From Escherichia coli (GTDB taxonomy: Bacteria; Pseudomonadota; Gammaproteobacteria; Enterobacterales; Enterobacteriaceae): a stretch of 64,000 nucleotides of DNA. Every line of letters starts with the position of its first letter. Position 1 is the stretch's first letter. Location: NCBI RefSeq assembly GCF_030013595.1, contig NZ_CP122768.1. One strand, given 5' to 3'. Positions 9,924-12,900 of this stretch are shown piece by piece. A program made the position numbers.

Positions 9924-12900
9924 ACCTGTCTTTACGCGGTAGCTTCATCCTCGGCTAAACGCGTTTCAGCATCCGCGACGATGGCTTCCAGCTCGCTCAA
10001 CATCTCTTCATAGCCAAAATTATTGGCGGTGCGAGCAGGTTCTTTCGCCACCACGGGCTTCACTGGCTGACGCTTTTTGGCCGATTTTTTACTCATCATC
10101 ATCTCCCTGTAAAAACAACTAGACAGGCAAATCTATCAGCAAAGCGCGCAGTGGGGAATCGGCAACCAGCGTAATGTTAGCCTCGTCACGAATAAACGCC
10201 CCATCACCGCAGGTCAGCGCCGCTTTCTCTTCATGATGCGTAAGCGCATGAAATTTCCCGTGAATCGATTGCAAATACGCGCGTGGTCCATGCAACTGGA
10301 AATTCGCACTTTCGCCTTTGTCGAGCACGATATGGTGCAGCCACACTTGCTGGCGCAGTTGCAGGCTACCCACTGTGCCCTCTGGCGAGGCGATTAATTG
10401 CTGCTTGCCCATATTAAGCGCCAGTTTTTGAATCAGCGGATTCTCTCGCTGCGGGCAGGCATCCAGCCAAAGCTGCATTCGCGTTAACGGTTTGTCTTTG
10501 CTGAGATTGTGTTCACTATAGCTGACACCCGGCTGGGTAGAGAGCAGCAACGCCTCTCCGGCTCTGGCCTGAACATGATTGCCTTCGCTGTCGCGATACT
10601 CTGCTTCTCCATCCAGAATCACATTTAAAATATCGACTTTGGGATAGGTTCGCGGCTGAAAGGCGGCACCTGGGGCCAGCACTTCCTGGTTAAGCACGCG
10701 CAGGGAGGCATAGCCTAACAATTTCGGGTCGAAGTAGTGTCCAAAGGAAAAAGTATACCGGGCCTGCAACCATCCGTAGTCTGCTTGTCCACACTGCCTG
10801 GCAGTTCGGGTAGTAATCATAATTCTTGACCTCTCTTTACTTCCTTTTATGGTAAGGGGCTGGACGCTACATTGTTAGCCAGATATTCTGCCCGGTATGT
10901 TCAAATTTCCTGAATGAGAACGAAATGGCCAAAGAAAGGGCATTAACGCTGGAAGCACTACGGGTTATGGATGCGATCGATCGCCGGGGCAGTTTTGCGG
11001 CGGCGGCGGATGAGCTGGGACGCGTGCCTTCCGCACTTAGCTACACCATGCAAAAACTGGAAGAAGAGCTGGATGTGGTGCTGTTTGACCGCTCGGGCCA
11101 TCGCACCAAATTCACCAATGTCGGGAGGATGTTGCTGGAGCGAGGGCGCGTTTTGCTGGAAGCCGCAGATAAACTGACTACTGATGCGGAAGCTCTCGCG
11201 CGCGGTTGGGAAACGCATCTCACCATTGTGACCGAAGCGCTGGTACCGACACCTGCCTTTTTCCCGTTAATCGATAAACTGGCGGCAAAAGCCAATACCC
11301 AACTGGCAATTATCACCGAAGTGCTGGCGGGGGCGTGGGAACGGCTGGAGCAGGGGCGGGCGGATATCGTTATCGCGCCGGATATGCATTTTCGTTCCTC
11401 GTCGGAGATCAACTCGCGCAAGCTCTATACGTTAATGAACGTCTACGTTGCCGCGCCTGATCACCCGATTCATCAGGAGCCGGAACCGTTATCTGAAGTG
11501 ACGCGCGTGAAATATCGTGGAATTGCGGTGGCGGATACCGCTCGTGAGCGCCCGGTATTGACCGTACAGCTACTGGACAAACAGCCGCGTTTAACGGTGA
11601 GCACGATTGAAGATAAACGTCAGGCATTACTGGCGGGGCTTGGCGTGGCGACGATGCCGTATCCGATGGTCGAAAAAGATATTGCGGAAGGGCGGTTGCG
11701 TGTCGTCAGCCCGGAATCGACCAGCGAGATCGATATTATTATGGCCTGGCGTCGTGACAGTATGGGGGAAGCGAAATCCTGGTGTCTGCGGGAAATTCCC
11801 AAACTTTTTAGCGGAAAATAATGTTTGTTATTTTTAATAACAAGGGGCGAAATATCGCCCCAATTCTAAGATTAATTTGAACCAAACTTCGGATCGTTTC
11901 CGTAACGATTGCTGCCAGAATTGCCTTCTAAACAGGCAAATACAAACAGAACTAACCAGCCAATGACCGGTACCAGATAGAGAAGCGCCCACGCACCTGA
12001 ACGGTCAGTATCGTGCAGACGACGAACGCACAGAGCAATGACCGGAATGATTGTTGCTGCCAGGTAAATGAGAGAAAGGAATGGAAACTCTAAACCTAAA
12101 ATCAATTGAATGACATTGATAATAGCGCCGACGATGGCGTTAATCAGAGTAAACATCCAGTACTCTTTACGACGTGCGCGACCAGAGAAACCAACATAAT
12201 TTTTTAATACGGCTAAATACCACTGCATAAAAACATCCCTTTAATTAAAAGTTGCGAAAGTCTATTCCGGGGATGGAGTAAATGCTATTCGTATCTTTCT
12301 TTTTCGGATGTTATAAAGCTTTTGATATTTAAGATAAATATATGGTTATTTTTTATAGGTAATTTATATAACGACATTGAAATATTTTAAATAAACATTA
12401 GTAAATTATTCATTCATCAACATGATGATAAAAGCCGGATGAGTCAGACATCCGGCGAGCAGATTTGTTTTAAGGTTCCAGTTTTGGATCTGGTCCAAAG
12501 CGGTTTTCGCCTGGCGTACCCGCCTGGCAGTTAAAGACGATGATAATAAGCCAGCCGATAAACGGGATTAAGAACAGCAGTGCCCACCACGCCGAGCGGT
12601 CGGTGTCGTGCAGGCGGCGGAACTGAACCGCCCACCACGGTAAAAACACCAGAATACCGTAGATTGTTGTCAGGATGCCTTCGCCACCAGCGCGTTGCCA
12701 GCCTAACATTTTATCCAGCAGCCCCAGCACGAACGTAAAGATGATGTTGACCAGAATAAACATCCAGTACTCTTTGCGCCGCGCACGACCCGGAAACCGA
12801 CATAATTTTTTAGTACTTTCAGATACCAGTCCATTTTTGCCTCAATTTTGCTCAATCACTTGTTTTTAAAGCAGCAAATTAAGAATAGACGTGAATGAAA

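Follow-up and report, generated by a model that had tools for sequence, protein, structure and literature searches.

The yhaH gene in the 64,000-nucleotide stretch of Escherichia coli DNA analysed here (the window) is very probably a genuine inherited loss-of-function allele, in which one G is gone from the GGGG across codons 15-16. The gene is 365 nt long in the window versus 366 nt (121 aa) when intact, and from its start codon at 12834 it reads ATG GAC TGG TAT CTG AAA GTA CTA AAA AAT TAT GTC GGT TTC CGG GTC GTG. The initial annotation described yhaH as frameshifted by a 1-bp deletion, with gene coordinates that are exact, and this is borne out both by the reading frames and by the alignment to the intact orthologue of strain TUM1886. 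Over 501 bases there is a single difference, CCGGGTCG in the window versus CCGGGGTCG in the orthologue, which is the one missing G. Alignment with yhaH from other E. coli, which had been proposed as a check, likewise shows a run one G longer in nearly all of them. The lesion had been assigned to the G run in ccggg, which is correct, and to positions 12790-12795, which is not quite: the run sits slightly to the left (Table 1). The loss of one G at 12791-12789 puts codons 1-15 and codons 16-121 out of step, and translation together with an ORF search agrees with the annotation that the N-terminal part and the last 97 codons are in separate frames. As it also predicted, a single inserted base restores a sequence like that of yhaI: with one G put back the protein reads FRGRARRKEYWMF, parallel to GFSGRARRKEYWMF in YhaI.

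The identity of the gene is clear. The annotated yhaH and the window are 99.8% identical, and the neighbours are common to both, with yqjG on one side and yhaI-yhaJ on the other. The repaired 121-aa YhaH matches Pfam PF05656 with E=4.5e-35 and 120.9 bits (cut-off 25.7) over residues 11-115. The adjacent yhaI belongs to the same family, and it is possible that it acts as a functional back-up for the lost yhaH.

Table 1. Features of the yhaH region, in window coordinates.
Feature	Position	Strand	Description and basis
yhaH pseudogene	12470..12834	minus	Frameshifted gene for a DUF805 inner-membrane protein; alignment and RefSeq annotation of the orthologue (yhaH / DUF805)
Lesion, 1-bp deletion	12789-12791	minus	Coding-strand GGG versus GGGG when intact, codons 15-16 (CGG GGT; TTC CGG GGT CGT); alignments
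Frame from native start	12703..12834	minus	MDWYLKVLKNYVGF (14 native codons) plus 29 out-of-frame codons; stop TAG 12705-12703
Residual 97-codon ORF	12470..12763	minus	ATG 12763 to TAA 12472-12470; Met25 to Pro121 of YhaH
Native Shine-Dalgarno GAGG	12840..12843	minus	Intact; 5 nt upstream of ATG 12834; duplex of -5.6 kcal/mol with the 16S tail
Intrinsic-terminator-like hairpin	12434..12456	minus	GCCGGATG...CATCCGGC then TTTT; just past the yhaH stop; intact
yhaI	11872..12228	minus	Intact DUF805 paralogue, 118 aa, directly downstream of yhaH; Pfam PF05656 E=2.5e-31

Judging from these signals, transcription and translation of the allele presumably continue, yielding a nonsense peptide of 43 residues. 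Ribosomes starting at the intact native binding site would read MDWYLKVLKNYVGF, continue out of frame through RVVRGAKSTG...WIKC, and halt at the TAG; the peptide has no Pfam match. Full-length YhaH, a three-helix DUF805 inner-membrane protein, would not be produced, and we infer that a functional product is absent.

It is very unlikely that yhaH is still functional, be it as 97 aa from ATG 12763, as 79 aa by reinitiation at ATG 12709, or by ribosomal or transcriptional slippage that restores the frame. The 97-codon ORF does cover DUF805 profile positions 15-111 (E=6.4e-26 against PF05656) and has lost none of the three hydrophobic segments, but the conserved N-terminal motif of DUF805, YVGFRGRARRKEYW, is missing from it. 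There is no Shine-Dalgarno sequence at ATG 12763, where the duplex energy of -2.4 kcal/mol is at background (the mean is -2.46 over all 2,106 ATGs in the window), and this ATG lies inside the shifted upstream frame, whose stop comes 58 nt further on, so that ribosomes would cross it in another frame. Because of these two features, the truncated product from ATG 12763 that the initial annotation offered as an alternative is unlikely, and independent initiation there should be poor. Reinitiation at Met43 is conceivable from the layout, since the out-of-frame stop overlaps that codon (ATGTTAG) in an arrangement able to permit it; the resulting 79-aa fragment would be without the first hydrophobic segment. 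Against any product of this kind, the frame arrangement is shared by just 3 of 5,426 complete genomes and so is not conserved, and PGAP labels the identical RefSeq alleles pseudogenes.

Two kinds of regulated frame change were considered and rejected. A programmed frameshift or transcriptional slippage does not fit TTTCCGGGTCG, which is without an X XXY YYZ heptamer and offers three Gs only, a run far too short for transcriptional slippage, in an arrangement as rare as that just given. A phase-variable locus would resemble the simple-sequence contingency loci of Neisseria and Haemophilus, in which the frame is likewise thrown off by a change in homopolymer length, and here a clone-mate even carries a second change that restores the frame. 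The yhaH tract differs from those loci in being only 4 nt long, with G3 in the same three genomes, all of one clone, and with no G5 allele in the 5,426 complete genomes when these are searched with a synthetic five-G query; high-frequency reversible switching is therefore not indicated.

An error of sequencing or assembly in a G/C homopolymer, with the strain truly GGGG and its yhaH intact, was another reading put forward in the initial annotation, and we find it extremely improbable. A 1-bp loss in a G/C homopolymer is the commonest type of long-read error. Among complete RefSeq genomes, none with the window's haplotype carries the deletion; the nearest complete relatives are the pig isolates HCP5S3_I2 and LCP30S3_I5, and yhaH is intact in both. 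Against an error stands the identical allele in a separate assembly. With the YqjG allele of the window, which is restricted to its lineage (136 index blocks), as a handle for members of the clone, we find contig DADWHO010000022.1 of GCA_018014835.1 (L024), which is 100% identical to window positions 12420-16612 (4,193 bp) with no gap and reads GGTTTCCGGGTCGTG. That the two assemblies agree makes an error very unlikely; L024 and the window may stem from one isolate that was sequenced or assembled twice, in which case L024 still validates the base call without representing a second isolate. The window is also nearly indel-free otherwise: about 57 kb compared with HCP5S3_I2 show about 120 substitutions but no more than 3 small indels. 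A second G-run deletion, at 33257, shortens an accessory gene of 513 codons to 452 and is in no complete genome, which suggested a window riddled with homopolymer errors. This is ruled out by the exact 452-aa product of that deletion, found on 21 contigs from independent draft and read-set assemblies: the 33257 deletion is a real clade marker, and the window assembly is accurate there. Two further observations speak against an error at yhaH, namely that the -1 allele is the simplest source of the +3 allele of a clone-mate (described below), and that the same -1 allele is inherited in another clone sequenced by three laboratories.

That other clone emerges from the survey of complete genomes. 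A 501-base query detects the locus in 5,419 of 5,426 complete E. coli genomes, and 5,324 genomes cover it; no match is perfect, and the best matches all carry one extra base, which identifies G4 as the ancestral state. A second query, of 45 bases and with the run at its centre, has flanks that each fall short of the 28-base megablast word and can match only genomes with the same deletion; it finds the G3 allele in 3 of the 5,426: NZ_CP062855.1 (IMP99_RS03295), NZ_CP159152.1 (ABU997_RS11570) and NZ_CP097001.1 (LDH51_RS04620), in all of which PGAP annotates yhaH as "frameshifted". Their sources are a pig in Canada, a human in China and stool in Korea. The three differ mutually by 2-3 SNPs and 0 indels over 40 kb, and since they come from three laboratories and two continents, they represent one clone in which the deletion has been inherited. 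This clone has the same G4-to-G3 deletion at codons 15-16 as the window, the same 365-nt pseudogene and the same consequences for the frames. Unlike the window, from which it is about 2% diverged, it has a fimbrial island lying between exuT and exuR, and its yhaH differs at 4 synonymous positions. Given this different genetic background, the deletion in the window arose independently. The yhaH of the window is thus an ordinary pseudogene, rare, recurrent and lineage-specific, of which the identical allele is already flagged as frameshifted in RefSeq. The initial annotation was right to propose a pseudogene; its "strain-specific" is better replaced by lineage-specific, considering L024 and the three RefSeq genomes of another clone. 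A scan of JGI metagenomes for the -1 and +3 alleles gave no matches, and the 43-aa out-of-frame peptide, taken as a handle for other assemblies with the -1 allele, is not on record, probably because gene callers skip it.

The same YqjG handle recovers clone-mates with flanks identical to those of the window, and four different alleles occur at this one site. The intact allele, CCGGGGTCG, is found in L022 and in HCP5S3_I2 and is the ancestral state. The frameshifted -1 allele, CCGGGTCG, is that of the window and L024. In L023/L029 (NCTC assembly GCA_900448395.1) and L030-L032, a full 1,331-bp IS2, 100% identical to the annotated IS2, gives the allele CCGGG-IS2-CCGGGGTCG; the 5-bp CCGGG duplication that flanks the element indicates that it entered an intact G4 target. 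This allele is present on nine contigs from several assemblies, with GCA_002460785.1, GCA_002517595.1 and GCA_002925925.1 as carriers besides the NCTC assembly, and its carriers have 0 SNPs relative to the window over 10-19 kb (for L029, 100.000% identity over 19,030 bp, with the same IS1397 copy included). The +3 allele, CCGGGTGGGTCG, is present on two contigs only, L021/L025 (GCA_026547945.1), which have 0 SNPs relative to the window over 13 kb. It equals the window sequence plus a tandem GGGT, which brings the gene back in frame with 122 aa (...GFRVGRARR...), and it is not obtainable from the intact sequence by simple tandem duplication. The coincidence of an IS2 at exactly the window's CCGGG is a reason to doubt that simple slippage explains the deletion.

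With either an IS2 or a frame-restoring allele at the same CCGGG in zero-SNP clone-mates, the deletion in the window is either plain slippage, which we favour, or the scar of a near-precise IS2 excision. We lean with modest confidence towards slippage. Replication slippage in the short homopolymer would have taken G4 to G3; a later GGGT duplication in one branch would then be an intragenic frame-restoring suppressor, and IS2 would have inserted in a sister branch as an unrelated event. The same -1 allele occurs in an unrelated clone without IS2 at the site, so slippage alone is sufficient to generate it.

The excision scar is the less likely alternative. An ancestor with IS2 and the CCGGG duplication would have undergone a deletion between GGGT repeats that removed the element and one base, the left GGGT consisting of the flanking GGG and the first T of IS2, and the right one being the native GGGT. 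A second scar, one that kept the first three bases of IS2 with a two-base overlap, would account for the +3 allele (CCGGG-TGG-GTCG). Precise and near-precise excisions with their ends at short direct repeats are described for Tn10, Tn5 and IS elements, and the likeness here is an IS2 with a 5-bp duplication in clone-mates, and a -1 junction that corresponds to a deletion between 4-nt repeats at the ends of the element. The difference from those cases is that the window is without any unambiguously IS-derived nucleotide. An excision is favoured by the absence of SNPs in the clone-mates that carry IS2 and in the +3 strain, by the junction arithmetic, with 4 nt of microhomology behind the -1 product as against 5 nt (CCGGG) for precise excision, by the fact that simple duplication cannot make the +3 allele from an intact gene, and by an apparent imprecise excision of IS1397 in the same clone, 3 kb away. 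It is weakened by the identical -1 allele in the unrelated clone, and by the absence of an IS2 junction at the yhaH site from all 5,426 complete RefSeq genomes. The T of the -1 allele and the TGG of the +3 allele do match the IS2 terminus, but they are equally explained by native sequence and a tandem GGGT duplication of the -1 allele. The -1 product would, moreover, gain no selection over the IS2 allele, and excision of insertion sequences is normally very rare.

Nearby markers bear on the order of these events as follows. The "empty" IS1397 junction in L030 (GATGC|GTCTT) falls 6 bases short of the true empty site, has no counterpart in any complete genome, and is likely an imprecise excision scar. 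We therefore rejected the presence or absence of IS1397 as a character for ordering the IS2 event, as the L030 site is not ancestral and a separate IS1397 insertion lies nearby in HCP5S3_I2. At 33257 the +3 strain retains the ancestral state and the window has the derived one, which fits the order of events under slippage as well as under IS2 excision. Among public assemblies, GCA_018014835.1 and GCA_008326365.1 carry the -1 allele or belong to the 33257 clade. Within 10 kb of yhaH there is no clade-specific protein marker; the sole amino-acid difference, T70I in YqjF, is private to HCP5S3_I2. Three derived alleles at one 5-bp site, with no SNPs nearby, amount to a small natural experiment in IS2 insertion and excision versus slippage.

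Loss of yhaH is also found elsewhere. In the index of public assemblies, the exact 97-aa product occurs in 3,017 blocks, a unit that does not translate into numbers of genomes. Among the ten loci listed for this product, eight of the nine with a readable 5' region bear distinct lesions: an A6 to A5 deletion, E22 changed to a stop, a +G insertion, IS1 at three different sites, and an ISEcp1-type transposase with a beta-lactamase. So many distinct 5' lesions indicate that yhaH is dispensable and often hit. The allele in the window is probably neutral or mildly advantageous. Taken alone it carries little weight, as one more lineage-specific pseudogene, in a non-essential gene whose biochemical function is unknown.

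The YhaH protein is detectably expressed in Salmonella, where the sRNA SdsR represses it (PMC5137417). In E. coli TK001, a spontaneous mutant, R188, has lost 48 bp of yhaH in frame (p.P66_A82del) and resists the phages ΦWec188 and ΦWec190 (Kaneko et al., J Virol 2025, PMC12548472), and its resistance is complemented by wild-type yhaH (PMC12548472; for the link between yhaH and phages see also 10.1101/2025.02.05.636633). R188 resembles the window in having a loss of function in the same gene, and it indicates that yhaH inactivation is viable and selectable. It differs in that its deletion is in frame, removes P66-A82 in a conserved loop and was selected in the laboratory, whereas the window has an early frameshift of natural origin. 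By analogy with R188, phage resistance is a plausible selective context for the loss of yhaH. YhaH is required by ΦWec188-type phages, and natural yhaH-null alleles, the window's among them, predict resistance to such phages, which bears on the choice of phages for therapy cocktails.

A bolder combination of these observations, which we consider doubtful, has yhaH as an inner-membrane factor required by some phages and repeatedly inactivated in wild E. coli, and has one 5-bp site in it switched off and on: IS2 would have inserted there, and imprecise excision would have left both the -1 scar of the window (off) and the in-frame +3 scar with its 122-aa YhaH (on). If true, this would be a natural case in which an IS reversibly silences a host factor for phages as phage pressure fluctuates. 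Whatever the origin of the deletion, the -1 allele together with the 33257 deletion makes a clean marker for a sub-lineage of the window's clone.

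The window carries a second 1-bp deletion in a run of G besides that of yhaH. At 33257-33259, inside an accessory gene, GGG becomes GG and the product is shortened from 513 to 452 amino acids. None of the 5,426 complete E. coli genomes has this deletion, and it is found on 21 contigs, draft or read-derived; its recurrence on these contigs shows that it is genuine and that it marks the sub-clade to which the window belongs. The ancestral form of the site is kept in GCA_026547945.1, the clone-mate of the window whose yhaH allele corresponds to the frameshifted one of the window with a tandem GGGT added. 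The resulting in-frame YhaH variant occurs on just two contigs of the whole collection, and is either a frame-restoring intragenic suppressor or an IS2 scar.

Features of the window and of the in-frame YhaH variant.
Feature	Position	Strand	Description
IS1397	window 8399-9838		TGG target duplication; within a palindromic unit, cyuA-yhaL interval
Accessory hypothetical gene	window 33239-34597	minus	internal repeats, no Pfam match
In-frame YhaH variant, 122 aa	L021:3779-4147 / L025:10001-10369		...GFRVGRARR...; GCA_026547945.1

In other assemblies, codons 1-24 of yhaH show many independent lesions, seen in the 5' region of loci that encode a 97-aa YhaH remnant (L007-L016). Among these, IS1 is inserted at three different positions, and L016 has an ISEcp1-type transposase together with a beta-lactamase gene. 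The small lesions are an A6-to-A5 deletion, a stop at E22 and a +G insertion.

The IS1397 site of the window is empty in HCP5S3_I2, the nearest complete relative, a pig isolate whose yhaH is intact; this genome has its own independent IS1397, inverted, about 50 bp from that site. A clone-mate with IS2 in yhaH (L030) also lacks the element. Its junction, GATGC|GTCTT (L030:3200-3205), is the true empty site minus 6 bp and is not found in any complete genome, so it is probably the scar of an imprecise IS1397 excision.

In the nearest complete relatives the yhaH-yqjG interval holds an IS200/IS605 transposase (L002:14618-15076 in HCP5S3_I2), which the window lacks at the matching place (13121-13127). 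They also have ygjK annotated with an internal stop; the gene is full-length (783 aa) in the window's clone-mates. The SNPs that separate the window from HCP5S3_I2 are strongly clustered, with approximately 105 of 119 within 49.3-55.9 kb, which suggests that 49341-55891 is a recombined segment. Homology with HCP5S3_I2 extends to 58,759; from there on the window has a different island (58759-64000).

Position 34745, 148 nt upstream of the accessory gene, is C in the window and G in HCP5S3_I2, while every other relative, even a divergent one, has A. One position has thus undergone two independent substitutions among very close relatives, possibly as a selected promoter change or at a hypermutable site.
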